64,000 bases of DNA. Origin: an uncultured Gammaproteobacteria bacterium. Its GTDB lineage: Bacteria > Patescibacteriota > Patescibacteriia > UBA9570. Positions within the stretch are counted from its first letter, which is position 1. Every line of letters starts with the position of its first letter. A program made the position numbers and the translations under genes. Location: the NCBI GenBank assembly GCA_964385285.1, contig CAYLOJ010000004.1, forward strand, positions 7,736-71,735. Reading direction: 5' to 3'. Below are positions 18,538 through 50,804 of the stretch, piece by piece. The notes under the pieces are model-generated. The model was given only the letters and a program-made list of their open reading frames with translations. It did no database searches and was not told where the DNA came from.

Positions 18538-19854
18538 TTAGTCGAGTACGGCAATGTAATAAATGGTGTTGCTACAACTGCCTTCAATCCCAGAATTGGG
18601 TACACGCAATTTTAAATAGGTATCTTTAATGGCCGCAAAGACCTCGCTTGTTCTGGCTACTAATGCCAAATTTACATTCGTATCCGTGTTTGAGAGTGCT
18701 TGGTCCCCTACGCCATAGGTGAATCCATTCGTAAAGGATAGGTGAATATTACTGGTGGGTATGGTTCCACGTGTACAACTAATATCGCCACTGGCGGATT
18801 GAGTCGCATCAATATTACGATTACCCGTGTTCGTAAATGCGAGCGTCTGTTGAGGTGAATCAACGCCGAGCGTTAATGTGCCGTAATTCACAGAAGCACC
18901 GACATCTAAGGCTAACAAACTATTCATTTCAAACGCATCGCTAGAATTTGCAGTGGCCGTAGCATCATCAGTCACTTTGACAAAGTTAGTCCAATTCGTA
19001 GACGCACCTGGAGAACCGGCGTCCGTCGCATCGGCATAATATTGAATCGGAATGACTGCTTCATAATCAATCGTAGTATCAGCACCACCTGAACAATTAC
19101 TGAGTGTAAAGGCAACAGTATTGGTATCCAACTGATAACAATTATTATTATCGGCACTGCAACTTGTACCGCCCGCAACATCACTTTTATATGCCGTGAC
19201 TGCCCATTGCGTTTTTGCGTCAATCTGCGAACAGCCATCGGCATCGGTCGCTGTTCCTCTAATATATAAATTGGTAGTTGAACCATCCGTTAAATTGAAA
19301 GATCCTTGATCACTACCGCCACTCGTTGTCGTTGTGATTACAGAATCCACGGATGGTGTGGCATTCCCACTGCTGCTGGCCGTGGCGCAAATTTTATTCG
19401 TGTAGGCAGCGGCGTCTCCGATATGCGCATTTGTGGTGACCGCAGACATGGAAGCAATGGTTGTATCATACCCTGCACAATTGGTTGCTTGATAACCAAC
19501 TGAAACCGTACCGCTACTTACGGATAAGCAGGCATTATTTGCGTAATTCATTTGTGTTTTCTGCTCGACATGGGCATTCGTGACGTCCGACAATTTTGCA
19601 ATCGTATCATAGGTACCAGAACAAGATGTGCCTAATCCTGCTACACCAGAACAACAGACCAATTGACTGTAATTGGCTTGACTAGCTAATTCAGCATGCG
19701 CATTACTAGTACCTGCCATGCGCAATACTACTGTACCACTAGGGCAACTTGTACCTACTGTGCAAGATAACGTGCCGGCTAGTGCAACCGGTGCGATGCC
19801 GCAGACTGCAATAAGAACCATGCCAACAACAAGAGATCGGTATTTACCAGGCAT
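18538..19854 (-). CDS. Secreted/surface protein, family A (Cys-rich N-terminal extension with three [ST][ST]NAH repeats)
   Basis: Signal peptide MPGKYRSLVVGMVLIAVCGIAPVALA. CSADNNNCY, NWTNFVKVTDDATATAN and a C-terminal SGIEGSC block are homologous to 14515..15480. Confidence 0.55.
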   Translation of the reverse strand: MPGKYRSLVVGMVLIAVCGIAPVALAGTLSCTVGTSCPSGTVVLRMAGTSNAHAELASQANYSQLVCCSGVAGLGTSCSGTYDTIAKLSDVTNAHVEQKTQMNYANNACLSVSSGTVSVGYQATNCAGYDTTIASMSAVTTNAHIGDAAAYTNKICATASSSGNATPSVDSVITTTTSGGSDQGSFNLTDGSTTNLYIRGTATDADGCSQIDAKTQWAVTAYKSDVAGGTSCSADNNNCYQLDTNTVAFTLSNCSGGADTTIDYEAVIPIQYYADATDAGSPGASTNWTNFVKVTDDATATANSSDAFEMNSLLALDVGASVNYGTLTLGVDSPQQTLAFTNTGNRNIDATQSASGDISCTRGTIPTSNIHLSFTNGFTYGVGDQALSNTDTNVNLALVARTSEVFAAIKDTYLKLRVPNSGIEGSCSNTIYYIAVLD

Positions 19855-21175
19855 ATACGCGCACCTCTCCACGGCCACCAGCGCCACCATTGCCACCAGA
19901 TGTTGTGCCGCCACCGCCACCGCCGCCACCTGCACCTAACGCACCATCTCCTCCGATACTACCCGCGCTATCCGTATCTCCACCACCACCGCCGCCAGAA
20001 CCACCACAAGCACCTTTGTTACTGGCTGCACCATTACCACCAACTGCTGATGTGGCACCGCCAATACCGCCAATAGCACCACCACCAGAGGCATAACGAC
20101 CAGTAGTACTACCAGCTCCACCAGCTGTACCGGCGTTGGCTGTTGTTACACCACCACCAGCGCCACCACCAGGACATCCATACATCGATGATCCGCCAGT
20201 ACCGCCCGCTGCAGGTACAGCGGAGCTGCCTGCGCCACCGCCGCCACCCCACTCCGCACCAGCACCTGTTACTCCAATAGCTCCCTGTTGACCTTGACCA
20301 CCGAATGCAGCTGCAGCAGAAGCTCCTGGAGCACCGCCGGAAACTGCAGTCGTTCCTGTACCTGTTATACCTGCGCCAGCAGTACCGCCACCGCCGCCAC
20401 CAACTGAAATATTGGCTGCGATGCCGCCTTCACCGCCACCGCCACCGCCTGCAAAACACAAAGTGCCACCGAATGTCGAGTTTCCACCAGCGCCACCGGC
20501 TGTACCAGAAGCACTACTGCCACCGCCGCCGGCAGTTCCACCAACACCCACATTAACAGATTCTGTTGAACCAAGATCCGCTGCACTAAAGGTGCGTTCA
20601 GTCAGTGCGCCACCGCCGCCGCCGCCACCGCCAATACGTGCAGAGGCTGCCGCTCCACCGTTGCCGCCGCCACCGCCGCCACCGCCGCCAATACAGACTA
20701 CTTTTACAGTCGTAACCCCGGCTGGTTTATTCCAGGTGTTGGCGCCTGTTGCAGTAAAGATTTGGACATCTCCTATCTTTCCCCAAGTACCGTTTCCTTC
20801 CCAAAACGACCCGGCACCCGCATTCGTACCCCCGTTTAAATTATTTACTGATAGATCTCCTGTCACCCCATTTGCCAGATTCACTTGTGACCAGGCAGGA
20901 TTATTGCTACCACCGGTATTGGATAAATAACGGGTGGCGGTAGTATTTTTTGCCAAAGCAACAATGGTGTTCGCCGCGGAACCATATAAGAGATCTCCCT
21001 GAGCAATCGTATTTAAACCTGTACCGCCTTGCGATGGCGTGACCAAAACATCACCAACTTCCGACCACGTATGTCCAGGATTCGGAGCAGCTGCCATCGC
21101 AATTTTAATGACAGAGGTGGCAAGACAAATCAATAAAAAAACGGATAGGATTGGATTAAAATATTTGAGTCTCAT
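19844..21175 (-). CDS. Secreted glycine-rich protein: ~150-aa N-terminal globular domain followed by ~280 aa of poly-Gly/Ala/Thr/Ser tracts
   Basis: Signal peptide MRLKYFNPILSVFLLICLATSVIKIAMA. Runs of G8-G10. Very high local GC from GGN codons. Ends RGEVRVYAW. Confidence 0.55.
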   Translation of the reverse strand: MRLKYFNPILSVFLLICLATSVIKIAMAAAPNPGHTWSEVGDVLVTPSQGGTGLNTIAQGDLLYGSAANTIVALAKNTTATRYLSNTGGSNNPAWSQVNLANGVTGDLSVNNLNGGTNAGAGSFWEGNGTWGKIGDVQIFTATGANTWNKPAGVTTVKVVCIGGGGGGGGGNGGAAASARIGGGGGGGGALTERTFSAADLGSTESVNVGVGGTAGGGGSSASGTAGGAGGNSTFGGTLCFAGGGGGGEGGIAANISVGGGGGGTAGAGITGTGTTAVSGGAPGASAAAAFGGQGQQGAIGVTGAGAEWGGGGGAGSSAVPAAGGTGGSSMYGCPGGGAGGGVTTANAGTAGGAGSTTGRYASGGGAIGGIGGATSAVGGNGAASNKGACGGSGGGGGGDTDSAGSIGGDGALGAGGGGGGGGTTSGGNGGAGGRGEVRVYAW

Positions 21176-39267: not shown

Positions 39268-40212
39268 TCAGTAGCCGCAGTCCTGGCACCAGTCGACGTG
39301 GTCCTGGATGTCCGGAAGCTCGTCGTAGAGCTGATCACCCGGGCACTCGGTAGTGCCATAGTCGCGATGACCCTTGATCACCGTACTGTTGGTGATGCCA
39401 GCTTCGAACATCACCCGCGCCACCACCGCTTCGAGCGTCTGAAGCTCCGTGGCGGTCGGCGTGACGCTGGTGAAGTCGCCCACCAACGAAATACCGACGT
39501 AGCCGGTGTTGTAGCCACTCGTGTGTGCACCCACGCACCACATGCTCGAGAACGAGCCGGTGCTGGTACACATGCGACCCTCGTAGATGTGCAGGCCGGC
39601 TGCGTCCTCGCACACCATCATCTGGTAGCCGATGTCACCCCAACCGTGATCAGGGCCGAAGATGTGGTAGTTCGCCACCGCAGCAACATAGGCGTCGCAG
39701 TCCGTGGTGTCGGCGGCCGTGTGGTGAATCGTCACCGCAATCGGCGCGTGCTCGCTGGGCGGCCAGTCGAGACTATCCGAATACCAACCGTAGCCGTAGT
39801 CGGCGTTCAACTCATCCCCCACGTCATAGGACGTCGGGAAGTTCGACACGCTAGGCCAGGAAGGAATCGGCGGATAGTAGCCAGCGACGATCGCGTCCTC
39901 CACGTCTGCAGAGTTGCTCCAGTCGGTCACGCCACTGCTCTGCGTGATGAGGCTCGCGCCCCACACGCTGCGGTCGGTCGTCATCAGACCCTGCCCGCAC
40001 AGCGCGGCAGCATCTGCACACTCGTCCGGCGCAGTGTCGGTGTCCGTGTTGGTGTCGCCAGTGTCTCCGGAATCCGTGTTGGTGTCCTGCGAATCGGTGT
40101 GCGTGTCCGAGTCGGAATCACCCGAGTCGGTCGACACACCAGTGTCAGTGGGAAAGGGCTTCGTGCCCATGTCGTCCCCATTGTTGCAGGCGAACAGCAG
40201 AATGAACGTCAT
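39268..40212 (-). CDS. N-acetylmuramoyl-L-alanine amidase (PGRP / amidase_2 family), putative lipoprotein with an Asp/Thr-rich linker. Horizontally acquired (high GC).
   Basis: IAVTIHHTA, NYHIFGPDHGWGDIGYQ, GAHTSGYNTGYVGISLVGDF and GHRDYGTTECPG are amidase_2 signatures. The N-terminus MTFILLFAC has a lipobox-like LFAC. GC >60% versus ~45% background. GGAG SD. Confidence 0.8.
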   Translation of the reverse strand: MTFILLFACNNGDDMGTKPFPTDTGVSTDSGDSDSDTHTDSQDTNTDSGDTGDTNTDTDTAPDECADAAALCGQGLMTTDRSVWGASLITQSSGVTDWSNSADVEDAIVAGYYPPIPSWPSVSNFPTSYDVGDELNADYGYGWYSDSLDWPPSEHAPIAVTIHHTAADTTDCDAYVAAVANYHIFGPDHGWGDIGYQMMVCEDAAGLHIYEGRMCTSTGSFSSMWCVGAHTSGYNTGYVGISLVGDFTSVTPTATELQTLEAVVARVMFEAGITNSTVIKGHRDYGTTECPGDQLYDELPDIQDHVDWCQDCGY

Positions 40213-40305
40213 TACGATCTCCAGGGTGGATGTACTTTGCTGAGAGGCTGTTGAAGAATAACAAGCCTACGATGACTACACAAATTTAGGAGGATTCGTG
40301 ACAAA

Positions 40306-40360
40306 CCGAAGAAAAACCGAAGTTATCCACAGCCAAGCTTGACCTTCGGTTTTTATTCGG
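40306..40360. promoter_or_regulatory. Candidate LexA operator / lexA autoregulatory region: CCGAAG-N5-CCGAAG ...21 nt... CTTCGG-N5-ATTCGG
   Basis: Direct repeats at 40306 and 40317 (11-bp phasing). Inverted copies at 40344 and 40355 overlap a putative TTGACC(40339)-17-TAACGT(40362) promoter 6 nt before the lexA ATG. Confidence 0.3.
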
Positions 40361-40373
40361 TTAACGTAGATGC

Positions 40374-41021
40374 ATGACCGCACTCACAAAAAAGAAAAAA
40401 CAGATTCTAGACTTCATCGGAGAATTCCAACAAGCTAAAGGCTACTACCCTACTCTGGAAGAAATCCGCAAACAGTTTCACCTCAATAGTCTATCTACTG
40501 TCCATCAACATCTCTCTGAACTGCAAGATTTAGGAATGATCGAACGTAACTACGGCAAAGCCCGCGACATGAAAGTTGCGATGGAAAGTAAAGTTGGCGG
40601 TAAAAACATCTATAAGACCAGTGCCGAGCCTTATCAAGTGGGGGCCAGCGCTGAACTACATATTGCTGGTTTAATTACTGCTGGGTACCCAATTGAAGCA
40701 GTCGAAGACACTACTGAAACTCTTACAGTGCCCCGCCACATGATCGATAATAAAAACGCTTACGTCTTGAAAGTAAAAGGTGATTCCATGATTGAGAGTT
40801 TAATTGCGGATGGTGATTACGTTGTAGTGCAAAAACAGGACTATGCTAGTGATGGCGATATTGTAGTCGCTTTGCTCGAAGATGGTTCGGCCACTCTGAA
40901 AGAATTCCACCGAGAAAAAAACTATGTGCGCTTACAGCCGCGCAATCAGAACTATAAACCCATTAAAGTACGCAATGTCGTCATTCAGGGTCGCGTACTA
41001 GGAATCATTCGCAAATATTAA
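40374..41021 (+). CDS. lexA: LexA repressor (SOS regulator, S24 peptidase)
   Basis: N-terminal wHTH. C-terminal VKGDSMIES (Ser), TLKEF (Lys) and the Ala-Gly cleavage region HIAGLITAG. Confidence 0.85.
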   Translation: MTALTKKKKQILDFIGEFQQAKGYYPTLEEIRKQFHLNSLSTVHQHLSELQDLGMIERNYGKARDMKVAMESKVGGKNIYKTSAEPYQVGASAELHIAGLITAGYPIEAVEDTTETLTVPRHMIDNKNAYVLKVKGDSMIESLIADGDYVVVQKQDYASDGDIVVALLEDGSATLKEFHREKNYVRLQPRNQNYKPIKVRNVVIQGRVLGIIRKY

Positions 41022-41029
41022 ATTGAGTT

Positions 41030-41335
41030 ATGTCGTATTCTTCTACTAGTACAGTTCCAATTGAGATGTTACCTGGCATCGGCCGTCGCACTGCTAAAGT
41101 GTTGCGCTCCATGCACATCCGCACTGTTGGTCAATTCAAAACACTACCAGAAAAGATGTTGGTTGAGATCTTTGGACCAAGCATCCGCACACTTTACACT
41201 GCTGTCCATGGCATGGAATATGCTTCCGTAGCGACACGACCGAATGTACAACCCAATGTACGTACAGTAAAAGCAATTAAAAATCTAAGCTTCACAAAAA
41301 AATTCCGCTTGGCTACACAGGTGTTGATGATGTAA
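41030..41335 (+). CDS. 101-aa protein matching only the HhH/thumb region of Y-family DNA polymerases (DinB/ImuB-like). Probable gene remnant or stand-alone HhH protein.
   Basis: LPGIGRRTAKVLRSMHIRTVGQF...LVEIFGPSIRTLYTAVHG resembles the DinB (IPGVGK..KL...GI.T.GDL...L...FG) thumb. No palm or fingers are encoded, and only 9 nt separate it from the lexA stop. Confidence 0.4.
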   Translation: MSYSSTSTVPIEMLPGIGRRTAKVLRSMHIRTVGQFKTLPEKMLVEIFGPSIRTLYTAVHGMEYASVATRPNVQPNVRTVKAIKNLSFTKKFRLATQVLMM

Positions 41336-41345
41336 GCCGCGAACG

Positions 41346-42134
41346 TTAAAACAACTTTTCTTGGTAGGCAGACGTCTGTTCACTTTCTGTGAGGTTGAGA
41401 ATTTTGTCCAATAAGTAAGTTTGTCGATCATTATCGGTGTAGGAATAGACCGTGACCGATTGATCGTTCAGATCTAATAGATCAACACGCGTGTGATGAA
41501 TCTGACGGTTTGTTTCTGTTTGCTGTAGTAGATCAATGGTGACTTGTTGGTGCTTCTTAAATGCCTCTGCTAAGCGTTGAAATATAGTCGGTTCATCTGA
41601 CCAACTCGTAGGCATGCGAAAACTATCTCCTCCTGATGTGTATAAAATGTAGCCATGGTTAACCCCATACTCATAGACATCTTTTGTAATGCGCACATCA
41701 TCTAAACAGTATTTCGCTAATGCCTTCATGTTTCCCTCCCGATAATACCGAATGGCATCTAATCCACTGCCGGATTTTCCTTCTCCTAGCGTAGCTTGAG
41801 CGACACTTTCCAGTTTCATACGAAACCCGAGTGTATTATAAATATCAGCCAAAATATCCACTTGTGGTAAAGCAGAGATATTGAGGGTTCTAAAGTAGGG
41901 TTGAATAACGACGTTATCAAAATTGATTGAATTGAAACCAATAATGGTTGGTTTCTCGGCGTTTAAAATCATCTCTAGTTTTGGAATGTCTTGTTCAAAA
42001 AAACTGAAATATTGTTTTTGCGTGTAGGAATAGAGCCCAAGAAATGAAACGCCCAATTCAGCATTTTTTCCAAATCCGCCAACTTCCGCAAAGGTTTTTT
42101 TAGTTTCTAAATCGTAAACAATGGTTGGGCCCAT
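41346..42134 (-). CDS. DEDDy-type 3'-5' exonuclease (RNase H-like, PolB-exonuclease/YprB-like)
   Basis: IVYDLETKK (Exo I), IGFNSINFDNVV (Exo II), YCLDDVRITKDVYEYG (Exo III, Y-x3-D). Confidence 0.55.
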   Translation of the reverse strand: MGPTIVYDLETKKTFAEVGGFGKNAELGVSFLGLYSYTQKQYFSFFEQDIPKLEMILNAEKPTIIGFNSINFDNVVIQPYFRTLNISALPQVDILADIYNTLGFRMKLESVAQATLGEGKSGSGLDAIRYYREGNMKALAKYCLDDVRITKDVYEYGVNHGYILYTSGGDSFRMPTSWSDEPTIFQRLAEAFKKHQQVTIDLLQQTETNRQIHHTRVDLLDLNDQSVTVYSYTDNDRQTYLLDKILNLTESEQTSAYQEKLF

Positions 42135-42150
42135 AGGTAATCTATTCCAA

Positions 42151-42915
42151 TTAACGTGGCGTGTGTTTTAGTTGCTCAATAAACTGCTTGGCTTCCGCAG
42201 AGCGAGGACAAATTTCTAAGAAGTCACAGTGCTTGCACCGTGAACTAATTTTTGGCTCAAGTTGCTGATCTGCACGAATTAAATTTACCTTCTCGATCAA
42301 TTCTTCGGTAATGGGCTCAAACAGATCATCTGAGATATCAATACTATACCATTGATTTGTGGCTAAGTAGAGGTAAGAGGCTTTATACACAGGGATGGAT
42401 TGATTCGCGCGCACAATCATTGCGTAAATGGCTAATTGATCCTCTGAAACTTCATCCTCCTTAAACTGACCGGTTTTATAATCAATCACATGCAACCCTT
42501 CCGCATCTTGGTCTACCCGATCGATGCGGCCTAGCACCTTAATATCTGAGGCAATCTCTGTGTCATAGTAATCCTCCAACATCACCGGTGTCTTCATTAG
42601 ATCATTTTTGAACGTATAGAGTTTCAACATCTGCAACGCTTTTGTCCCCCACTCGCGTTCATCTGCAATATCCATGAATCCTTTTCGATTCTCTCGCCAG
42701 CGCTTGCGTAACAATGCTTCTAGCACCTGATAGTTGCGCTCAGCTGGAGCATACTGCTCGTAGAGATCCTTTAAACTATTATGAACATGGGCACCCATGG
42801 TTAAATATGGTTTGGGAGTTTTGTACTCATCCGCAATGTAATCCACATAAGTATATTTATACTGTCGTGGACAGGTTTCATACATGGTCAGCTTGAATGG
42901 TGAGATCTTGAACAT
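42151..42915 (-). CDS. Cas4-like PD-(D/E)XK nuclease with a 4-Cys Fe-S cluster signature (DUF83/RecB-family), stand-alone
   Basis: N-terminal YETCPRQYKY, catalytic GRIDRVDQD...VIDYKTG, C-terminal CKHCDFLEICP (C-x2-C-x5-C). The start ATG overlaps the stop of the upstream LCP gene. Confidence 0.65.
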   Translation of the reverse strand: MFKISPFKLTMYETCPRQYKYTYVDYIADEYKTPKPYLTMGAHVHNSLKDLYEQYAPAERNYQVLEALLRKRWRENRKGFMDIADEREWGTKALQMLKLYTFKNDLMKTPVMLEDYYDTEIASDIKVLGRIDRVDQDAEGLHVIDYKTGQFKEDEVSEDQLAIYAMIVRANQSIPVYKASYLYLATNQWYSIDISDDLFEPITEELIEKVNLIRADQQLEPKISSRCKHCDFLEICPRSAEAKQFIEQLKHTPR

Positions 42916-43871
42916 TATTTTAAATATTGATTCACGATATCTTTGGTACCTTCTTCATCCAGAATCCAATAGTACAGTGATTTCCCGAACGATGGAGTAT
43001 AGATTCTTGTGCCTTCACCAGGTAACACCTGCTCCTCCATTTCTGGAAGATCCAAACCACGATGGCCCATTATGTAAGCGACTCCAAACGCCGCTAGACT
43101 AGATTTGGAAATATCCAGGCGGGCGCGATCACTGGTCAATAGATAATCGTAGATTTTCTTTGCTGTGAATGGTGACTTGGCCTTTTGCAAAACAGCTTTA
43201 AATATTTCGCGCTGTTCAGCGGCTCGCCCAAAATCACCTTCTGCTTGTTCGAAGCGATTATGCACTAACTCTTGCGCTTCGGCGCCATCTACATGTCCTG
43301 TACTAATATCGACTCCACCTACTGAATCAACGATGTCCGTGAAACTATCAAACGTCACTTCAACCTTACCATCAATTTTAATATCTAACAGATCTTCTAC
43401 CACACTGGTAGTGAGATCAACATTGCCCATTCGATCGGTAGACTCATCCCACATCGCATAAAAATGGGTAATCTTTTGGAGGCCTTTTTCCGGATGGTCA
43501 ATTTTGGTATCGCGCGGTACCATCACTAACGACATCGGATCATTTTTAGATTTTGGAATCGAGACAATCATCAGCGCGTCGGAACGTGCATGCTCATTGT
43601 TACGCTGATCCGACCCAATCACTAAAATATGATAATAGCGCGGCTGACTGACATAAAAGCCAAATATCAAGATCGCACCAATACAGAATCCAATCAGAAT
43701 CGTTTTTAGCAACACTTTGCGCAACCAACGACGGCACCCAGAAGGCTGAGATGGTTGCGGTGCAGCAGACACGTTACTGCTAGTTTTGGCGTTTGTAGTA
43801 TTATTCGTCTTTAGCGGTTTCGGATGTAAGCTCACGGTATTTACCTTTAATGGTTTTAATCGAGTGCTCAA
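42915..43871 (-). CDS. LytR-CpsA-Psr (LCP) family cell-envelope phosphotransferase
   Basis: N-terminal TM, then ILVIGSDQR...RSDALMIVS LCP core. The annotated start overlaps xseB by ~70 nt, so the true start may be internal. Confidence 0.75.
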   Translation of the reverse strand: MSTRLKPLKVNTVSLHPKPLKTNNTTNAKTSSNVSAAPQPSQPSGCRRWLRKVLLKTILIGFCIGAILIFGFYVSQPRYYHILVIGSDQRNNEHARSDALMIVSIPKSKNDPMSLVMVPRDTKIDHPEKGLQKITHFYAMWDESTDRMGNVDLTTSVVEDLLDIKIDGKVEVTFDSFTDIVDSVGGVDISTGHVDGAEAQELVHNRFEQAEGDFGRAAEQREIFKAVLQKAKSPFTAKKIYDYLLTSDRARLDISKSSLAAFGVAYIMGHRGLDLPEMEEQVLPGEGTRIYTPSFGKSLYYWILDEEGTKDIVNQYLK

Positions 43872-44043
43872 CCTCTTCCAAGTAACTCTTGAGTTCCTGT
43901 GCTAACTTTAAGCCCTCTTCAAACTTTGTTAAACCCGTCTCTAAATTATATTTCCCACTTTCAAAATCAGCAGTAATTTTCTCTAGCGCATCATACTGCT
44001 TCTGAAAATCGAAGGATTTTTTTGTGGAGGAAGACTTGGCCAT
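43801..44043 (-). CDS. xseB: Exodeoxyribonuclease VII small subunit
   Basis: 80 aa, FEKQYDALEKI..LE.GK..LE.GL..FEEGLKLAQEL pattern. Confidence 0.75.
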   Translation of the reverse strand: MAKSSSTKKSFDFQKQYDALEKITADFESGKYNLETGLTKFEEGLKLAQELKSYLEEVEHSIKTIKGKYRELTSETAKDE

Positions 44044-44052
44044 AGGTGAGCA

Positions 44053-45141
44053 TTATAGCACCTTCGATTGTAAGCTACCATCAGCCAAAATGGTTTCCAG
44101 CGTACTACCTGGTTTTGCTTGCTCAGCCTTGGTAATCACCTCACCGTTAGCTGTACGTGTAATGCTATAGCCACGTTCTAAAATCTGCTTTGGGTTGTAG
44201 GACCGCAGCAATGCTTCTAAATGATTTACATTTTGGTGATACTGCTCCATCTGCTTAGACAGTAACGACACTGCCGTACTAATCCGTTCAGTCACTACAT
44301 GGTGGCTGGTTTGGAGAGAACGATATTGTCGCTGGACAGACATTCGTAGCTGTTCAATGACATCGCGTTTATCTGGCACCACCATCTCTGCTGCGTTCGA
44401 AGGCGTAGATGCACGTTGATCTGCCACATACTCCACTAGAGTTTCATCCCGCTCGTGACCAATTGCGGCCACCAGTGGCACCTTAAGCGCAAATGCAGCG
44501 CGCACGACTGCCTCATCATTAAATGCTTGCAGATCTTCCATGGAGCCTCCGCCACGGGTTAAAATAATCACATCCAGCTCTTTAGTGTAACTATGGTTAA
44601 TCTCCTGCAATGCTAATACGATACTAGGAACGGCTTGTGCCCCTTGTACATTAACAGGAAAGTGATAGATCTCTACTCCAGCCCAACGATTTTTTAAGAT
44701 CTTCAGCACATCTGTATAGGCTGCTGCATCGCTCGAAGTAACTAAGCCAATCCGCTTGGGAAAACGTGGTAAAGCGCGTTTGCGATCGGCGTCGAATAAT
44801 CCCTCTTTGGTCAATTTAGCTTTTAGCAATTCGTAGCCTTTCTTTAAGGAGCCCTCCCCGACGATCTGAATTTTATTAGCACGTAGATGGAATTTTCCGG
44901 ATTTCTGAAATAAGGACGGCCGACCAATCACTTGAATTTGCATGCCATCTTCCAGCGGCTGATCCAGCTGAAAGGCGAGCATAAAGCAACTCACGTAGCT
45001 GGACTCATCTTTAAGATCAAACCACACAAACCGATTTTGGGCGATCTTAAAATTACTGACCTCTCCCTGCACACAAGCGGGAATGCCGGATAACAATTCA
45101 TTAACGCCACGGACAAAATCCGAGACGGAATATACCTCCAT
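44053..45141 (-). CDS. xseA: Exodeoxyribonuclease VII large subunit
   Basis: N-terminal OB-fold (SVSDFVRGVNELL...VQGEVSNFK), central catalytic domain, 362 aa. Confidence 0.85.
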   Translation of the reverse strand: MEVYSVSDFVRGVNELLSGIPACVQGEVSNFKIAQNRFVWFDLKDESSYVSCFMLAFQLDQPLEDGMQIQVIGRPSLFQKSGKFHLRANKIQIVGEGSLKKGYELLKAKLTKEGLFDADRKRALPRFPKRIGLVTSSDAAAYTDVLKILKNRWAGVEIYHFPVNVQGAQAVPSIVLALQEINHSYTKELDVIILTRGGGSMEDLQAFNDEAVVRAAFALKVPLVAAIGHERDETLVEYVADQRASTPSNAAEMVVPDKRDVIEQLRMSVQRQYRSLQTSHHVVTERISTAVSLLSKQMEQYHQNVNHLEALLRSYNPKQILERGYSITRTANGEVITKAEQAKPGSTLETILADGSLQSKVL

Positions 45142-45143
45142 GG

Positions 45144-45440
45144 CTAGTTGCGATCTACCAGTAATTGCCCAGTGCGATTATCACTCTTCTTGGGATGATT
45201 CATCTGATAAAAATGATTGTCTACGGATGCATCTGCTCGACGGAAATGTTTGGAGGATTCATGACCAATATGTTCCTGCATCCAAGCTGAATCTTTTTCC
45301 TCTAAAAATGCAACTACTTTCTGTTCGGTGAGGTCAGGCCAAGCTGCATTCACAAAGATCTCATACCCGTTAATATGGCCCATGTATTTGTAATCCTTGC
45401 CATCGAATTCAGCGTGCTCGTATTTTGTATAGTATTCCAT
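45144..45440 (-). CDS. Hypothetical protein (98 aa)
   Basis: ORF track. Tightly packed between xseA and the HAD hydrolase gene. Confidence 0.4.
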   Translation of the reverse strand: MEYYTKYEHAEFDGKDYKYMGHINGYEIFVNAAWPDLTEQKVVAFLEEKDSAWMQEHIGHESSKHFRRADASVDNHFYQMNHPKKSDNRTGQLLVDRN

Positions 45441-45446
45441 AGAACC

Positions 45447-46019
45447 TTACAATTTAATTTCGTTAAGTGAACTAATTTGATGATGTGGGCATTGAGGAAT
45501 CGGCTCTAAATATTTACCGGCTGGTCGTGTCATCCAATAGAGTTTCACATCTGAATACACTTTGGCCACGGCCTCCAGCTCACTCGCCCGATCATCTACC
45601 ATGATCATATCAGGTTCATAGTAGTCGGCAAGGCGTTGCACTTTTGGTTCCTGTACCACTAACGTACGGATGCTGCTCGGCAACATTAACGCCTTGAGCT
45701 TTTCTGTCTGCCAAGTGCGTTCACCGAACGTCATAATCAAGGCGTCATGGCCCTTAGCAACCACCTGCTGAATAAAAGGCCAGGTATCTTTGTAGCAATA
45801 GCGACGTAGATTTTGCAACACAGCGTAAAACTGTTTACGTTCCGAATCTGAGACACCGCGCAAAAAATCTTGGGCAGAAAAAAATCCATTGTCTTTTACA
45901 AACTGGTCATAGGAACTTAACCATTGTTCACGTGAGATGCCCAAACTAGTTGATAAAGCGTAACTAAACGCCGTGGTATCCAACAATGTATAATCCAAAT
46001 CCAAGATTATTTTTGACAT
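45447..46019 (-). CDS. HAD-superfamily hydrolase
   Basis: ILDLDYTLLDT (DxDxT motif I). Confidence 0.6.
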   Translation of the reverse strand: MSKIILDLDYTLLDTTAFSYALSTSLGISREQWLSSYDQFVKDNGFFSAQDFLRGVSDSERKQFYAVLQNLRRYCYKDTWPFIQQVVAKGHDALIMTFGERTWQTEKLKALMLPSSIRTLVVQEPKVQRLADYYEPDMIMVDDRASELEAVAKVYSDVKLYWMTRPAGKYLEPIPQCPHHQISSLNEIKL

Positions 46020-46921
46020 AATCGATATAAGGCAGCAGCTAATTTTTTACCATCTATTTTGGTTGGGTCAACGGCGCGTAAATTTGCTTCATGTACTTGA
46101 ATATTTGCCTGCTCTAATCCCACCTTATTATATTGTACTAAATTCGGCGTCGTCTTATCAGTCAGAATCGTTTGATCAAGGATCAAATCGTCTAATGGCC
46201 GGCCCACATACGCACTAATCGTATTGGCATAATCCGCTGCCGTATAAGCATTCGTTTCCCCATCCTTGGTAGTACGATTACAGGCATATACTAAACGCGC
46301 CTTAGTGTGTTGTAGTGCTTGCTGCACACCGCCAACTAACACATTAGGGAGCACACTGGTGTAGAGATCGCCGATGGTAAACACCACATAATCCGCTTGT
46401 TGAATTGCTTTTAACACAGCTGGTAATGCTTGTACTTTCGGCTTGAGATAAATTTTGCGAATGGGCGAACGCTTCGCTTGATCCGGTATGTCGATGGCAG
46501 TTTCACCATGTACCACCCTGCCGCTAAATAATTTTGCGTAGAGCGTCGTAGCAGAATTCGTGACCGGTAAAACAGTGCCACGAATATTCAACCACCTCCC
46601 TAACTGCTTAGCGGCTTTTTCGATTGAACCGTGTTTTAATTCTAACCCGGCTAAAATCAAATTACCGATGGCATGACCATCCTCCAGACGATAATTAAAG
46701 AGATCAGTCCAAATCGTTTCTTCTGGTGCTAGAGCAGCAATACAACGACGAATGTCGCCGGGCGGTAAGACACCTAGATGTTCACGTAAAATACCCGTCG
46801 AGCCACCATTGTCTACCATCGAAACCACTGCAGTGATGTTAACAGGATACTTTTGCAGGTGACGCAATAATAATGATTGCCCCGAGCCCCCGCCGATAGT
46901 TACTACACGCACAGGCTTCAT
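46007..46921 (-). CDS. YvcK/CofD-like (UPF0052) gluconeogenesis factor family protein
   Basis: VVTIGGGSG...VVSMVDNGGSTGILR signature. Confidence 0.75.
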   Translation of the reverse strand: MKPVRVVTIGGGSGQSLLLRHLQKYPVNITAVVSMVDNGGSTGILREHLGVLPPGDIRRCIAALAPEETIWTDLFNYRLEDGHAIGNLILAGLELKHGSIEKAAKQLGRWLNIRGTVLPVTNSATTLYAKLFSGRVVHGETAIDIPDQAKRSPIRKIYLKPKVQALPAVLKAIQQADYVVFTIGDLYTSVLPNVLVGGVQQALQHTKARLVYACNRTTKDGETNAYTAADYANTISAYVGRPLDDLILDQTILTDKTTPNLVQYNKVGLEQANIQVHEANLRAVDPTKIDGKKLAAALYRLCQK

Positions 46922-47628
46922 GACTGTAGGTAATGTTCTAATGCTTCAATATCTTCTGGCCGACCAAGATCCATCCACGGTTGTTGCAGGCGCACTAAAC
47001 GCGCTGGATGAGTTTTGGTTAATTGATTGATCGCATCAGTAATTTCTAGCTCACCGCGTTCAGATGGTTTGATAAATTCTAGAGTTTTAAAGACATCGCG
47101 TGTTAAGGTGTATAAACCCACATTAATGTCGTTACTTGTAGGGTGAGCTGGCTTTTCCACTATTCGGGCCAAGGTATGCTGTGGAGTGTATTCAATTACA
47201 CCATAGCGCTCGGGATGGTCATGTTCAGTCACCGCAACCAGAGGTTCCAAGGTAGATTGTTGCATCGCCTGTAAATCCAATGTGCCTAGCAGATGATCTC
47301 CCATGGTATACACAAAACGATCACCTTGCAGATAAGATTTCGCTGCCAATAACGGACAAGCTGTTCCGTACTGTTCGTCCCCCAATTCTTTGATCTGATC
47401 AATGACAATTAACTCTGTATCTGTATCATAGGCTTCCACTGCTGTCTTCAGTTTATCTACAAAATGACCCCCGACAATAAACACTCGGCGATACCCTGCC
47501 ATCACAATGGAGTCTAACAAATAATACAAAAATGGTTTGCCAGCAATCGGAATAATATGTTTGGGAATGGCACTGGTATAGCCCTGCAAACGCGTACCTT
47601 TACCAGCGGCGGCAATTACAATATCCAT
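46918..47628 (-). CDS. Sugar-phosphate nucleotidyltransferase
   Basis: IVIAAAGKGTRL (G-x-G-T-R-L) motif. 236 aa. Confidence 0.7.
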   Translation of the reverse strand: MDIVIAAAGKGTRLQGYTSAIPKHIIPIAGKPFLYYLLDSIVMAGYRRVFIVGGHFVDKLKTAVEAYDTDTELIVIDQIKELGDEQYGTACPLLAAKSYLQGDRFVYTMGDHLLGTLDLQAMQQSTLEPLVAVTEHDHPERYGVIEYTPQHTLARIVEKPAHPTSNDINVGLYTLTRDVFKTLEFIKPSERGELEITDAINQLTKTHPARLVRLQQPWMDLGRPEDIEALEHYLQS

Positions 47629-48473
47629 AATTTTTTTGCGATCTTATACGCAGTATACCACATTGGCTTTAGGGGCAGTTCATAGGTTCCTGGACGAGTA
47701 ACCACCTCTCCACCAAAACCAAGTTTAAAGCGAGTAATTCCAGCGAACGGATGATTAGGTTGATCTGCGGGCGCGATACCAAACCAATCATAATAATGAT
47801 GCCCTGCGGCAGCCGCATCTTGCATGATCTGCCAATGTAGGAGGTGTGGTGCCATCACTGCCCGCTGCGCATGATCTGAACCGCCATGTAAATATGTCGC
47901 CATATCTTCATGATAGATCACCATCGCAGTGGCCACGGGTTGTTGTTGATAATAGGCTAAGTACAATTTCACCATCTGATACGAACTCAGTACTCTGAAG
48001 ATGGTTTCGTAGTAATCTTTGGCATGAAGACGAATACCCTGGGTTTGCGCAGTACTACGCAGCAACTGATAAAATAGCTCTACATCTTCAGTAGTGTGTA
48101 CGGTGACACCTTTCTTTTCCGCTAAACGAATATTGTAACGCGTCTTCTGCTTACAGCGAGCGAGCATCTGCTCAGCATCACTCAACGGTGTTACCAATGT
48201 TGTACTGGGATGCACATCTTTAATGTGTTTACCCTGCGTTGGCGCGGTCATGGGTTCATAGCGCACAAATAAAGCGCCGTCATTTAAGACATCGATCTTT
48301 TCTGGGCAAGGACCCTGCGGAATAAACCAATACCATTGCTTAGCCGGTAGTGCATATCGAATCGCGCGAATGGTGAGATCAGCCTGTTGAATCGTTTGCA
48401 CTGTTCGCCCATAGGCTGCTTGCACCTCTGCCCAAGCTGCGGTCTGCAAAAACGATGAATGATAACTACCCAT
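47616..48473 (-). CDS. FemAB-family peptidoglycan interpeptide-bridge aminoacyltransferase (short)
   Basis: KTRYNIRLAEKKGVTV and Fem-family C-terminal half. 285 aa. Confidence 0.55.
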   Translation of the reverse strand: MGSYHSSFLQTAAWAEVQAAYGRTVQTIQQADLTIRAIRYALPAKQWYWFIPQGPCPEKIDVLNDGALFVRYEPMTAPTQGKHIKDVHPSTTLVTPLSDAEQMLARCKQKTRYNIRLAEKKGVTVHTTEDVELFYQLLRSTAQTQGIRLHAKDYYETIFRVLSSYQMVKLYLAYYQQQPVATAMVIYHEDMATYLHGGSDHAQRAVMAPHLLHWQIMQDAAAAGHHYYDWFGIAPADQPNHPFAGITRFKLGFGGEVVTRPGTYELPLKPMWYTAYKIAKKLWIL

Positions 48474-49044
48474 TGCTCAAAAGACTCAACGCCTGTTTTA
48501 ACTGCTGTTCTACATTGGCAGACTTATCCAGTTGTTGTAACACCAGGCGAATCTCCGCAGTGGAATATCCAAGTTGTTGAAGAGCTTCAATCACAGTATT
48601 GGAGCTACCGCCCACTGCATCGCTAGAAACCATTCCCAATGCCAACATGGCTGGTTGCAATTCTAATACCAATCGTTCCGCAGTTTTTTTACCCACCCCA
48701 GACACTTGGGTGAGAAGAGCTTTATCTCCATCAATGATGGCTTGCCGCACAGATGCAGCTGAAAGATCAGACAAAATAGATAACCCCACTTTGGGACCTA
48801 CTCCAGAAACACTGATCAACTGTTCAAAAACATCGAGGTCGGCAGCAGTAGCAAAACCATATAGATCATTAACGTCTTCTCGAATGACATGATGGAGATA
48901 ACATTCAATGTCTGCGCCCGGTTGTGCAGCTGACAATTGTGTTGTGGGTACAAATATTTTGTAGCCAATGTCATTGACCACGACGATCAAATAGCGTTTG
49001 AGCGGCTGGATCAGTTGAATTTTACCTCGTAAGTAACCTAACAT
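48466..49044 (-). CDS. ruvA: Holliday junction DNA helicase subunit RuvA
   Basis: MLGYLRGKI N-terminus, HhH pair VSGVGPKVGLSILS. Confidence 0.8.
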   Translation of the reverse strand: MLGYLRGKIQLIQPLKRYLIVVVNDIGYKIFVPTTQLSAAQPGADIECYLHHVIREDVNDLYGFATAADLDVFEQLISVSGVGPKVGLSILSDLSAASVRQAIIDGDKALLTQVSGVGKKTAERLVLELQPAMLALGMVSSDAVGGSSNTVIEALQQLGYSTAEIRLVLQQLDKSANVEQQLKQALSLLSNG

Positions 49045-49048
49045 GGCC

Positions 49049-49078
49049 TTGATTATAACACATTTTTTTAGTATAATG
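49049..49078 (+). promoter_or_regulatory. Promoter for the CPA2 antiporter gene (TTGATT-18-TATAAT), leaderless-type
   Basis: TTGATT at 49049-49054 and TATAAT at 49073-49078. The ATG at 49086 is 7 nt after the -10 box. Confidence 0.45.
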
Positions 49079-49085
49079 TAGTCTT

Positions 49086-50804
49086 ATGGAATCTATTTTT
49101 ATTGAACTCAGCGCCATCATTGTATTGAGTACCGGACTAGCTCTAGTTGCTAAAATCTTAAAACAACCGATCATCTTGGCCTTCATCGGCACTGGTATCT
49201 TATTAGGCCCAATTGGGTTCAATATCTTACAATCACACGAATTAATTGATGTTTTAGCTGAATTTGGCATTGCCTTGTTGTTGTATATCGTCGGAATTGA
49301 GTTAGATATCAAAAAATTTAAAGCGCTATCTTGGCCTACCCTATTAGCAGGTATCGGGCAAATTATCGGTACGGGCTGCATTGGTTGGCTGATTGGTATC
49401 GGTTTAGGCTTTTCTAGCATTGAATCTGCGTTTATTGGTATTACTCTAACCCTGTCCAGTACGATCATTATCGTTAAGCTCCTCAGCGAAAAACGGCAAT
49501 TAGAATCTCTCTACGGGCGTATCACCGTTTCAATGTTGTTACTGCAGGATGTCGCGGCTATTCTTGCCCTACTATTATTACAAAGTTTTGCGGGCACTAC
49601 TGGCTTCACTATTCCTTGGGCAACCTTCGGTGCGTTAGCATTCAAAACAGTCGTGATTGGTGGTGGTGCCTATCTGCTGGCCCGCTATGTGTTTCGCAAA
49701 ATCTTTTTGTTCATTGGACGATCCCAAGAATTGTTATTCTTGTGGAGCATTGCATGGTGCGTATTGTTTGCCGCCATTGCCATTCTTTGGGACTACCCCA
49801 TCGCTATTAGTGTCTTTTTTGCTGGGATCACCATTGGTTCACTGGACTACAACTACGAAATTGCGGCGCGTATCCGCTCTCTGCGTGATTTCTTCATCGT
49901 GATCTTCTTCACATTTTTAGGGAGTGAATTGATTCTAGATTTGGAACCAAAATTGCTGATCAGTGCATTCGTGTTAGCACTGTTCGTATTAGTGGGCAAT
50001 CCAATGATTGTTTATATCATTCTGCGTTTTGCTAAACATCAAGACCGTACTGCATTTTTTGCTGGCTTAACCATGGCCCAAATTAGTGAGTTCTCTTTCA
50101 TTATATCAAACCAAGGTTTAACACAAGGATTAATTTCCCAGCATTTAGTGTCGATGATCGCGGTCGTTGGGTTAGTCACGATGGTACTGTCCACTTACAT
50201 GATTACCTACAATGAAAAGATCTATCACTACTTTTCGCCTCTACTGCGCTGGCTGCCGTTACCAAGCCCTACTCCCGATGCGGCTGATGTTATTCCATTG
50301 GATTTAAAAAATCATTATGTGGTCTTTGGCTATCATGCTAATGTAGATCACCTACTGGATGAGCTTCACCATGCTGGCGAAAAAGTTGTAGTGATTGATT
50401 ATAATCCCGATAATACAGAGCGCATCAAGCAACAAAAAGTGCTCTACATTTATGGTGATATGCGCGATGAAGATATTCTAGATTTGGCAAATTTAGAAAA
50501 CGCCAAAATGATTATCTCTATTGTGCCCTACCATGAACCAACCATGAGCTTGCTGCAACACATTAAACATTTTGGAATCAAATGCAATGTGGTCGTGTTA
50601 GCTCCATACCTGATGGATGTCAAAGCATATTATGATGCCGGCGCTACCTTTGTATTGCACCCTGAATCCATTAGTTTGAAATACCTATTATCCGTACTCA
50701 CTCCTGAGCAGCTCGCCCATGCTAGTACGGCTCATCAAAAAGAATTAATCGATCTATTAGAACATTCTCTACATACCAATGGGCCTTTACCAGCTGGTAA
50801 GTAA
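49086..50804 (+). CDS. Cation:proton antiporter (CPA2/Kef-type) with a C-terminal TrkA-N (RCK) domain
   Basis: ~12 TM N-terminal domain. C-terminal HYVVFGYHANVDHLLDELHHAGEKVVVID is a Rossmann/RCK fold. Confidence 0.75.
   Translation: MESIFIELSAIIVLSTGLALVAKILKQPIILAFIGTGILLGPIGFNILQSHELIDVLAEFGIALLLYIVGIELDIKKFKALSWPTLLAGIGQIIGTGCIGWLIGIGLGFSSIESAFIGITLTLSSTIIIVKLLSEKRQLESLYGRITVSMLLLQDVAAILALLLLQSFAGTTGFTIPWATFGALAFKTVVIGGGAYLLARYVFRKIFLFIGRSQELLFLWSIAWCVLFAAIAILWDYPIAISVFFAGITIGSLDYNYEIAARIRSLRDFFIVIFFTFLGSELILDLEPKLLISAFVLALFVLVGNPMIVYIILRFAKHQDRTAFFAGLTMAQISEFSFIISNQGLTQGLISQHLVSMIAVVGLVTMVLSTYMITYNEKIYHYFSPLLRWLPLPSPTPDAADVIPLDLKNHYVVFGYHANVDHLLDELHHAGEKVVVIDYNPDNTERIKQQKVLYIYGDMRDEDILDLANLENAKMIISIVPYHEPTMSLLQHIKHFGIKCNVVVLAPYLMDVKAYYDAGATFVLHPESISLKYLLSVLTPEQLAHASTAHQKELIDLLEHSLHTNGPLPAGK

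Follow-up and report, generated by a model that had tools for sequence, protein, structure and literature searches.

The window analysed here, a stretch of DNA of 64 kb, carries on its minus strand a head-to-tail series of genes for both subunits of exodeoxyribonuclease VII (xseA, xseB), an LCP transferase, a Cas4-family Fe-S nuclease and a DEDDy exonuclease. A check of the open reading frames returned the same five genes as the initial annotation, at the same positions and with the tight junctions described there (all ≤ 16 nt, read from the sequence). The genes and their features are:

44053..45141, minus strand: xseA, exodeoxyribonuclease VII large subunit, 362 aa (TIGR00237, PF02601, PF13742)
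43801..44043, minus strand: xseB, exodeoxyribonuclease VII small subunit, 80 aa (TIGR01280, PF02609)
42915..43835, minus strand: LCP (LytR-CpsA-Psr) glycopolymer transferase with an N-terminal TM helix (PF03816), start uncertain
42151..42915, minus strand: stand-alone Cas4-family (RecB/AdnB-like) PD-(D/E)XK nuclease, 254 aa (PF12705, motifs)
42871-42873, minus strand: C15, putative fourth Fe-S ligand (Cys invariant in 25 homologues)
42469..42486, minus strand: IDYKTG, catalytic motif D145-x-K147 (D145, Y146, K147, T148 and G149 invariant)
42208..42237, minus strand: C227-x2-C230-x5-C236, putative Fe-S ligands (Cys invariant in 25 homologues)
41346..42134, minus strand: PF13482-family 3'-5' exonuclease, 262 aa, with DEDDy core, WYL and QxxLF
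41640..42134, minus strand: DEDDy exonuclease domain, about aa 1-165
41370..41597, minus strand: WYL-like beta-barrel domain, about aa 180-255
41349..41363, minus strand: QEKLF C-terminal pentapeptide, putative beta-clamp-binding motif (homologue conservation)

XseA (365.6 bits against TIGR00237, cut-off 180) combines PF02601 with the OB fold PF13742, while XseB reached 43.1 bits against TIGR01280 (cut-off 35); ExoVII (XseAB) degrades ssDNA from either end. The LCP protein matched PF03816 (E 4.8e−21) and TIGR00350 (79.8 bits, cut-off 62.3), and the identities first given to the ExoVII and LCP genes are thus supported. A 9-nt gap separates xseA from xseB, the LCP stop and the Cas4-like start overlap in TAATG, and 16 nt lie between the Cas4-like and exonuclease genes, the last two junctions being as initially described. 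The overlap also proposed between xseB and the LCP gene depends on the LCP start, for which an in-frame ATG is absent: the longest ORF, from TTG 43871, gives 71 nt and GTG 43835, with AAAGG 9 nt upstream, gives 35 nt, but later TTG/GTG codons give none. GTG 43835 appears the more plausible start; the overlap is not kept among relatives. The LCP gene itself occupies the same position in 12 related genome loci, and an AAA ATPase and a small ORF take its place in one further locus (L081).

Upstream of xseA, six further co-directional genes are packed equally tightly (neighbours overlap by up to 13 nt or stand at most 6 nt apart) up to ruvA at 49044, the nearest of them, a 98-aa ORF, ending 2 nt upstream of xseA. 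At the other end, the exonuclease stop codon lies 10 nt from the end of a DinB-thumb miniprotein gene, and the convergence with lexA noted earlier was found as described. The flanking genes are:

48466-49044, minus strand: ruvA (Pfam)
47616-48473, minus strand: FemAB-like (Pfam)
46918-47628, minus strand: NTP transferase (Pfam)
46007-46921, minus strand: CofD-like (Pfam)
45447-46019, minus strand: 190-aa ORF with no family named (ORF list)
45144-45440, minus strand: 98-aa ORF with no family named (ORF list)
45144..49044, minus strand: upstream part of the array, ruvA to the 98-aa ORF (spacing, Pfam, synteny)
41030-41335, plus strand: DinB-thumb miniprotein, 101 aa (PF21999, E 3.5e−6)
40374-41021, plus strand: lexA, convergent (TIGR00498, 178.1 bits)

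Because this run continues for six genes upstream, the five genes do not form a delimited unit; they are the 3' end of an 11-gene, lineage-conserved chromosomal array reaching from ruvA to the exonuclease. The order from ruvA to the 98-aa ORF is repeated in four loci (L001, L004, L006, L011), and Kerfeldbacteria-like loci (L001-L011 and L022) keep the full 11-gene order. The discrete nuclease operon of five genes first proposed is therefore not supported by this wholly syntenic array of mixed function: ruvA, xseAB and the nucleases stand beside FemAB-like, NTP-transferase, CofD-like and LCP genes, and the LCP gene is "odd", as it had been called, only when one presumes a functional operon. lexA and the DinB-thumb miniprotein gene are kept beside the exonuclease gene in related loci, while uvrB, rpoB, rpoC and a Mur ligase (murE-like) in the neighbourhood indicate a core chromosomal context. 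Promoter and terminator scans gave matches at chance level and are thus uninformative on transcription; it is gene spacing that suggests co-transcription.

The Cas4-like protein matched PF12705 over its full length (E 3.2e−33) and Cas_Cas4 at 1.2e−9, but scored below NCBI's Cas4 equivalog cut-off (TIGR00372). The Cas4 hallmarks recognized at the outset (an N-terminal Cys, IDYKTG and CxxCx5C) are all present and invariant across 25 homologues, as part of the set C15, D132, D145-Y-K147, Q160...Y164 and C227/C230/C236, and the four Cys may form an Fe-S "iron staple" cluster. In structure the protein lies further from CRISPR Cas4 than from the nuclease domains of AdnAB, ACE1 and Dna2, although it differs from Dna2 and the AdnAB/AddAB nuclease domains in the absence of a helicase fusion and of a helicase gene in the window (UvrD-type helicases included, over the 64 kb). 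In the databases the protein has only the name "PD-(D/E)XK nuclease family protein", in entries from Patescibacteria MAGs; the neighbours in other lineages are SbcC/Rad50-like (27 loci), DUF72 (13 loci) and UvrD-like (L121) genes. The protein belongs with the solo-Cas4 proteins known from CPR bacteria, which were already reported as over-represented in CPR genomes without CRISPR (Hudaiberdiev et al. 2017, PMC5704561) and which it resembles in size and stand-alone form (about 250 aa), in D...DxK and QxxxY, in one N-terminal and three C-terminal Cys, and in belonging to a small CPR genome, away from CRISPR loci, with apparently vertical inheritance.

The exonuclease scored 32.1 bits against PF13482 (RNase_H_2 / PolB-exo2, cut-off 22), matched PF10108 (E 8.9e−5) and retains D8, E10, D73, Y142 and D146, which are invariant in the homologue alignment. 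Its AF2 model (pLDDT 92.5, with a low-pLDDT C-terminal tail) predicts a family-B-polymerase-like exo core followed by a C-terminal WYL domain, in line with the PolB-exo-like DEDDy type assigned initially; compared with family-B proofreading and PF10108 (DNA_pol_B_exo2) domains it is stand-alone, the polymerase domain being absent. The score of the window protein is below the Pfam WYL threshold, and the predicted structure and 6 of 25 homologues are the grounds for the WYL assignment. WYL domains bind ssDNA in DriD, PafBC and CapW, but some bind RNA or nucleotides, so that ssDNA binding by this one is an assumption. Compared with these sensors and BrxR, the domain is fused to a nuclease and not to an HTH, and WCX/HTH modules are absent from the exonuclease, as set against the sensors and the Thermotoga Pif1 WYL accessory domain; its ligand is putative. 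At least 524 relatives were found in species-representative genomes, almost all Patescibacteria. In the databases the exonuclease has only the name "ribonuclease H-like domain-containing protein", in entries from Patescibacteria MAGs.

The exact C-terminus fits Q-x-x-[LIMVF]-[FLIMVY] in the window exonuclease and in 64 of 85 locus homologues, compared with 4 of about 1800 other ORFs ≥ 150 aa (about 0.2%). Q258 is invariant and L261 at least 90% conserved; the terminal QxxLF is retained even by short forms without WYL and was not found in the XseA and Cas4-like controls. Judged against the beta-clamp-binding consensus QL[S/D]LF / QxxLF (PMC12309361), the tail probably binds the sliding clamp. 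Although strongly conserved, QxxLF is short, and the tail could have a partner other than DnaN. The Bacillus subtilis repair exonuclease MrfB/YprB, partnered with the helicase MrfA, belongs to the same family (PF13482), and JGI gives the name "YprB" to PF13482 relatives of the exonuclease in contig L155. The likeness would extend to a Mg-dependent DnaQ-fold DNA exonuclease activity and to a frequently adjacent helicase gene, which is UvrD-type for the window family.

The Cas4-like protein and the exonuclease could be a dedicated two-nuclease complex trimming both strands of a DNA end, the Fe-S nuclease acting on the 5' strand and the exonuclease on the 3' strand. It would then be an AddAB/AdnAB analogue, peculiar to Kerfeldbacteria-like bacteria, that has no helicase or draws on one in trans. 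Of the 12 Kerfeldbacteria-type loci, 9 have the Cas4-like gene directly upstream, down to about 45% protein identity, and in L081 the pair is still adjacent and overlapping despite the LCP replacement and different downstream genes. However, the whole 11-gene array is syntenic in this clade, and adjacency within it is therefore no specific evidence; moreover, L011 has xseAB-LCP-exonuclease and lacks the Cas4-like gene, and L007 and L008 carry insertions of 1.5-1.8 kb with another gene between the two. Elsewhere, adjacency was seen only in a few Chloroflexota contigs, where L134, L142 and L155 show a similar Cas4-like to PF13482 order but three sampled exonuclease loci have no Cas4-like neighbour. 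Across 80 exonuclease loci, a Cas4-like gene was upstream in 11 (9 directly adjacent) and absent within 8 kb in 69, while a UvrD-type helicase was upstream in 27 (17 directly adjacent) and xseAB in 8 loci having neither (6 directly adjacent). From the other side, 63 Cas4-like loci extended far enough downstream for this comparison: a PF13482 exonuclease followed in 7 and none in 56. The conserved nuclease module first suggested thus does not hold, by the very outcome named beforehand as refuting it. TIGR03491 (TM0106), matched in its first half by a Cas4-like protein and at its C-terminus by a PF13482 protein, hints at a natural fusion of both domains, but weakly and far below the cut-off, and we regard such a complex as rather unlikely.

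It is highly improbable that the pair serves stand-alone anti-phage or foreign-DNA interference, or that it is left over from CRISPR adaptation or assists it from a distance (Cas4 with a DnaQ-like prespacer trimmer). The Cas4-like protein does match PADLOC Cas4 models (E about 1e−17) and, weakly, the DruK and Aga Cas4-like models; its close structural match ACE1 acts with pAgo in defence, and in ACE1 and AdnAB the ssDNA is led through a channel (PMC12094033); defence or repair roles were proposed for solo-Cas4 (PMC5704561). Cas4 and Cas2-DEDDh prespacer-trimming modules likewise encode a 5' Fe-S nuclease together with a 3'-5' DnaQ-fold exonuclease, but here Cas1, Cas2 and an array are absent, the exonuclease is of the DEDDy PolB type and not DEDDh, and the pairing is not conserved. 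No CRISPR-like repeats were found in the 64-kb window, and no cas genes (cas1 and cas2 included) or pAgo among the scanned and annotated neighbours, as the initial annotation had noted for CRISPR-cas. The exonuclease had no PADLOC match, viral contigs held only distant relatives (partial-length matches of ≤ about 38% identity), and its distribution is typical of a core gene. With the Cas4 score below the cut-off, no defence partners found around the nucleases and a vertically conserved housekeeping setting by ruvA, xseAB, lexA, uvrB and rpoBC, the CRISPR-like (prespacer-trimming) or anti-phage module considered at the outset was rejected; the putative clamp-binding tail also points to replication or repair. 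An RNA-processing role for the DEDDy-WYL protein (like that of RNase D/T or oligoribonuclease), with incidental proximity to repair genes, is improbable as well: unrelated genes are tightly packed in CPR genomes and some WYL proteins bind RNA, but the structural comparison ranks proofreading domains of DNA polymerases highest, Pfam places the protein in DNA exonuclease families, and a UvrD-type helicase or xseAB recurs as neighbour in 35 of 80 genomes.

We consider it fairly probable that the nucleases are housekeeping enzymes of DNA-end and ssDNA processing in an array of a Kerfeldbacteria-like Patescibacterium that mixes cell-envelope with DNA-repair genes, and are neither CRISPR-derived nor part of defence; of the roles initially offered, that of a repair module is the one supported. 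All activities, and any cooperation of the Cas4-like protein with the exonuclease, are ones we infer. XseAB would break down ssDNA from its ends, while the Cas4-like protein, as a helicase-less iron-staple nuclease resembling domains in which ssDNA passes along a narrow channel, most likely acts by cutting or resection on ssDNA ends or flaps exposed by a separate helicase. The exonuclease most likely holds ssDNA via WYL, is brought to the beta sliding clamp by its disordered QxxLF tail and removes 3' ssDNA, which a UvrD/PcrA-type helicase would provide at stalled forks or during repair of the excision or mismatch type, in a role analogous to that of the MrfA-MrfB helicase-exonuclease pair or ExoI/ExoX. 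With its added ssDNA-binding-type domain and putative clamp-binding tail, the exonuclease is the one unusual part of the region; its architecture is modestly new, and the remaining genes are ordinary.

The five consecutive minus-strand ORFs that the initial annotation described as a nuclease-rich operon (xseA, xseB, an LCP gene, a Cas4-like gene and an exonuclease gene) are present as described. XseA (TIGR00237, 365.6 bits vs. a cut-off of 180) and XseB (TIGR01280, 43.1 bits vs. a cut-off of 35) both exceed their equivalog cut-offs and are encoded next to each other, which identifies them as ExoVII. The LCP transferase matches PF03816. The fourth protein matches PDDEXK_1 nucleases over the full length, with a further match to Cas_Cas4 in Pfam, and the fifth belongs to PF13482 RNase_H_2/PF10108 PolB-exo2. 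The junctions were read from the sequence:

xseA/xseB, minus strand: 9-nt gap
LCP/Cas4-like, minus strand: TAATG
Cas4-like/exonuclease, minus strand: 16-nt gap

The overlap proposed for the LCP and Cas4-like genes is thus real, but the one proposed for xseB and LCP depends on the start chosen for LCP (71 nt from TTG at 43871, 35 nt from GTG at 43835) and is not kept in relatives. The most plausible LCP start is GTG 43835, with AAAGG located 9 nt upstream.

A unit of five genes proved too narrow. A 98-aa ORF ends 2 nt ahead of xseA and is preceded by a 190-aa ORF and by genes for a CofD-like protein, an NTP-transferase, a FemAB-like protein and RuvA, each junction being an overlap or a gap of ≤ 6 nt; given these tight junctions, we consider the run an 11-gene array reaching from ruvA (49044) to the exonuclease gene (41346), in which envelope and repair functions are mixed. 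An apparent further extension by a 148-aa 'ruvC' ORF (49022–49468, minus strand) was rejected as spurious, since it has no Pfam match and overlaps a real Na+/H+ exchanger gene on the opposite strand (49086–50804, plus strand). Only 41 nt (49045–49085) separate ruvA from this divergent exchanger gene, so that the promoter of the array is probably located within the coding sequence of a neighbour; scans of 39–50.5 kb for promoters and terminators returned signals at the level of shuffled sequence and were uninformative, and tRNA and Rfam scans of the window found nothing. Co-transcription of the array, judged from gene spacing alone, is plausible. The presence of uvrB, rpoB, rpoC and a Mur ligase gene nearby places the array in a core chromosomal context, the nearest relatives of both nucleases are Patescibacteria, many of them named Candidatus Kerfeldbacteria, and the cluster is a case of conserved housekeeping synteny.

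The motifs cited for the two nucleases are genuine and invariant in 25 diverse homologues of each. In the 254-aa Cas4-like protein they comprise the RecB-type residues D132, D145-x-K147 and Q160/Y164, together with C15 and C227-x2-C230-x5-C236 as putative Fe-S ligands (25/25 homologues in both cases). Its PF12705 match (116.1 bits, cut-off 22) spans positions 2–247 of the 247 in the profile, and with no helicase fused to it the protein has the make-up of a stand-alone RecB-family nuclease or solo-Cas4. The score against TIGR00372 (CRISPR-associated Cas4/COG1468) is 60.4 bits, just under the equivalog cut-off of 65, and the protein is therefore placed, by sequence, in the iron-staple RecB/AdnB/Cas4 assemblage as a member that lacks a helicase. 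Fold similarity to the AddAB/AdnAB nucleases is high, but those nucleases come with a UvrD-like motor, either fused or encoded alongside, while the protein here stands alone, and no UvrD-type helicase was found among the ORFs of the window. The best available mechanistic analogy is with ACE1 and AdnAB, in which ssDNA is threaded to the D-DxK site along a narrow channel (PMC12094033). The literature searched for DNA repair in CPR bacteria and for RecB-family exonucleases yielded nothing specific. Neither the gene set nor the solo-Cas4 protein is of a new kind.

The 262-aa exonuclease combines three parts. Its core matches PF13482 with 32.1 bits (cut-off 22), as do 25/25 homologues, and the catalytic residues D8, E10, D73, Y142 and D146 are invariant among these 25. 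The predicted structure is confident (pLDDT 92.5), and in it residues ~180–255 form a WYL/Sm-like barrel, with matches to WYL domains in PafBC (11.8), BrxR (10.7) and DriD (10.3–10.5). Sequence comparisons agree weakly with this predicted fold: the window protein has no match to Pfam WYL PF13280 at E-values up to 0.01, 6/25 homologues match it (best 5.2e−6), and the family profile reaches PDB chains containing WYL domains with E-values of 0.004–0.02. In DriD, PafBC and CapW, the WYL domain is reported to bind ssDNA.

The third part is the C-terminal tail QEKLF, of low pLDDT, in which Q258 is invariant. Genome and metagenome loci supplied 85 homologues, of which 64 have precisely Q-x-x-[LIMVF]-[FLIMVY] as their last residues, in most cases Qx[ST]L[FLI]; the remainder mostly finish with xSLF. 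The tail is also kept by short forms that have no WYL domain. Such an ending occurs in 4 of ~1800 other ORFs of ≥ 150 aa from the same loci (~0.2%) and in 0/93 Cas4-like proteins. This pattern is identical to the bacterial clamp-binding consensus, QL[S/D]LF or more generally QxxLF, with which PolC also ends (PMC12309361). The tail would present this QxxLF motif in an accessible segment, and we infer on good grounds that it binds the beta clamp (DnaN). Six homologues lack the tail (L044, L048, L066, L068, L070 and L073, each a locus around an exonuclease homologue); L044, L066 and L068 end in ...VPT[AS][IV]AE instead, and by title L066, L068 and L070 are from Omnitrophota and L048 is from Aerophobetes. 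The C-terminal QSKVL of the XseA in the window is not kept in orthologues and was dismissed as a chance match.

Homologues of the exonuclease are encoded by at least 524 species-representative genomes, and 80 of these loci were used to analyze gene neighbourhoods. A UvrD/PcrA-type helicase gene lies upstream in 27/80, directly adjacent in 17, in Komeilibacteria and Parcubacteria-type genomes; eight loci, from Azambacteria, Uhrbacteria and others, have xseA-xseB upstream with neither a Cas4-like nor a UvrD gene (six directly adjacent), and 34 have none of the three. The Cas4-like gene is found upstream in 11/80 (nine directly adjacent), and these 11 loci are all Kerfeldbacteria-like, with most or all of the array from ruvA to the exonuclease gene and the convergent lexA conserved as well. 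One locus (L011) carries xseAB-LCP-exonuclease and no Cas4-like gene. The helicases ahead of the exonuclease (L012–L051) are ~685 aa long with PF00580 and PF13361. In 12 loci (L041, L042, L047, L054, L059, L062, L064, L067, L069, L072, L076 and L077) a ~170-aa PF04308 'RNaseH_like' protein is encoded directly after the exonuclease. Examples of neighbours on either side of the comparison are:

L020, 5915–7969: UvrD/PcrA-type helicase gene at an exonuclease locus
L024, 5933–7963: UvrD/PcrA-type helicase gene at an exonuclease locus
L083, 6996–8621: SbcC/Rad50-like ATPase gene at a Cas4-like locus

The reciprocal comparison used 82 loci around Cas4-like homologues, which sample another part of the Cas4-like family and 63 of which had enough downstream sequence; PF13482-type neighbours were found by iterative search. 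Such an exonuclease adjoins the Cas4-like gene in 7/63 loci, five of which are Kerfeldbacteria-type arrays, and in an eighth locus (L142) the exonuclease gene is cut by the contig end. The other two (L134 and L155) are contigs of Chloroflexota type that encode a canonical PF13482 protein, as is the truncated L142; at three further Chloroflexota exonuclease loci sampled, the Cas4-like neighbour was absent from all three. Elsewhere, in 27 loci of a different lineage (L083–L116), an SbcC/Rad50-like ATPase with AAA_23 and a Rad50 zinc hook is encoded ~400 nt after the Cas4-like gene. A DUF72 gene lies directly upstream in 13 other loci, and in L121 a UvrD-type helicase gene comes after the Cas4-like gene. 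The TM0106 family (TIGR03491) corresponds to a putative fusion of Cas4-like and PF13482-like domains, but no single polypeptide here exceeds the cut-off of that model (97.45 bits): 20.6 bits are reached by the Cas4-like protein and 13.9 bits, at the C-terminus of the model, by the exonuclease of L155, and the window exonuclease does not match it. The best 120 homologues of the L155 exonuclease, all from Chloroflexota, are stand-alone proteins of ~282 aa with no Cas4-like fusion among them.

The nuclease pairing singled out in the initial annotation does not hold, then, for most of either family, which is the outcome that the annotation itself had named as refuting. A cooperation of the two enzymes restricted to particular lineages is conceivable, since the pair persists in L081 although the locus is rearranged and recurs in a second phylum; set against the small share of loci with both genes in either direction of the comparison, we regard it as unlikely. 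The idea that the pair forms a CRISPR-like trimming or anti-phage module fared worse. [quoted passage not shown] The reported lack of CRISPR-cas nearby was borne out: the 64-kb window has no CRISPR-like repeats, the only tandem or direct repeats that the scans detected being those of a PF21722 gene, and the neighbouring genes scanned in the window include no cas genes. In PADLOC-DB, the Cas4-like protein matches generic Cas4-type models only, nothing meaningful was returned for the exonuclease or for eight neighbours, and no complete defence system was recovered. Viral contigs carry only distant relatives of either nuclease, and the genomic context is vertical and housekeeping. A defence role is accordingly highly improbable, and the tempting CRISPR-like reading was removed as unsupported.

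The region convergent to the array contains two further features:

40304–40362: two inverted TTCGGTTTTTNTTCGGTT copies just upstream of lexA, candidate LexA operator
41030–41335, plus strand: 101-aa DinB/Pol IV thumb ORF (PF21999, Pol IV model positions ~175–240)

Each TTCGGTTTTTNTTCGGTT copy is a direct repeat of TTCGGTT with 4-nt spacing (TTCGGTT-N4-TTCGGTT), and the element is kept upstream of lexA in six relatives (L001, L002, L004, L006, L008 and L009), making it a candidate for the LexA operator of this lineage. The rest of the window, the surroundings of the nuclease genes included, has no other copy, and in related loci it is adjacent to lexA only; SOS control of the nuclease genes was thus rejected, since nothing assigns the array to the SOS regulon. 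The thumb ORF begins 8 nt past lexA and encodes a stand-alone thumb. Versions of 87–136 aa follow lexA in 15 related loci, and a full-length 407-aa DinB takes this place in L010. Conservation is strong over the N-terminal 60 aa, the linker is variable, and the conserved C-terminus LAxQ[VFL][LIV]x[LMV] (QVLMM in the window) resembles a clamp-binding motif. We consider this lexA-linked miniprotein a modest lead. Beyond lexA, the segment 38001–40254 has a G+C content of 50.6% vs. ~44% elsewhere in the window and holds long antisense ORFs as well as the gene of an Amidase_2 (PGRP-type) protein (39268–40212, minus strand) with a low-complexity, Asp/Thr/Ser-rich N-terminal region. The PF21722 protein (19844–21175, minus strand) is glycine-rich, and its coding repeats are rich in GGC/GGT.

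The cluster would most likely supply general enzymes for processing DNA single strands and ends. Folds, catalytic residues, motif conservation and neighbourhood statistics are established by the analysis; the activities, clamp binding and cooperation of the enzymes are inferred from sequence. ExoVII is a ssDNA exonuclease that acts from either end, and XseAB would degrade ssDNA in this manner here; the Cas4-like protein may thread ssDNA and cut at ends or flaps opened by a separate helicase, and the DEDDy-WYL-QxxLF protein would be a clamp-recruited 3′-5′ ssDNA exonuclease acting downstream of a UvrD/PcrA-type helicase. This role is proposed by analogy with the helicase-partnered repair exonuclease MrfB/YprB and with ExoI/ExoX, the latter acting in methyl-directed mismatch repair. 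YprB is also the name that JGI uses for relatives of the L155 exonuclease within PF13482. There are differences from MrfAB: MrfA is a DEXH helicase, whereas the helicases adjoining exonuclease homologues, where present, are UvrD-type; the C-terminus in MrfAB is TPR instead of WYL; and the DEDDh histidine is replaced by Tyr142 in the fifth catalytic position.

Taken jointly, these features hint at a Patescibacteria-wide class of clamp-tethered 3′-5′ DNA exonucleases (PolB-type DEDDy core, WYL ssDNA module and QxxLF tail), a reading we offer tentatively and still hold to be doubtful. On this reading, the exonuclease would act in trans in excision or proofreading for these reduced genomes, working with UvrD/PcrA and ExoVII; in Kerfeldbacteria it would also process both strands of DNA ends together with the neighbouring iron-staple Cas4-like protein; and the adjacent lexA-linked DinB thumb, with its Q-x-x-hydrophobic-hydrophobic tail, might compete for the same clamp. 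We found no description of the three-part architecture or its phylum-wide distribution in the accessible literature, and the exonuclease is a modest lead. Repair repertoires of Patescibacteria are very small, and its occurrence across so many species genomes, its core, WYL domain and tail, and the frequent adjacency to UvrD or ExoVII genes make this protein a candidate for the 3′-5′ ssDNA exonuclease needed by excision or mismatch-type repair. If this is true, the roles of WYL domains would extend beyond transcription factors to a nuclease.
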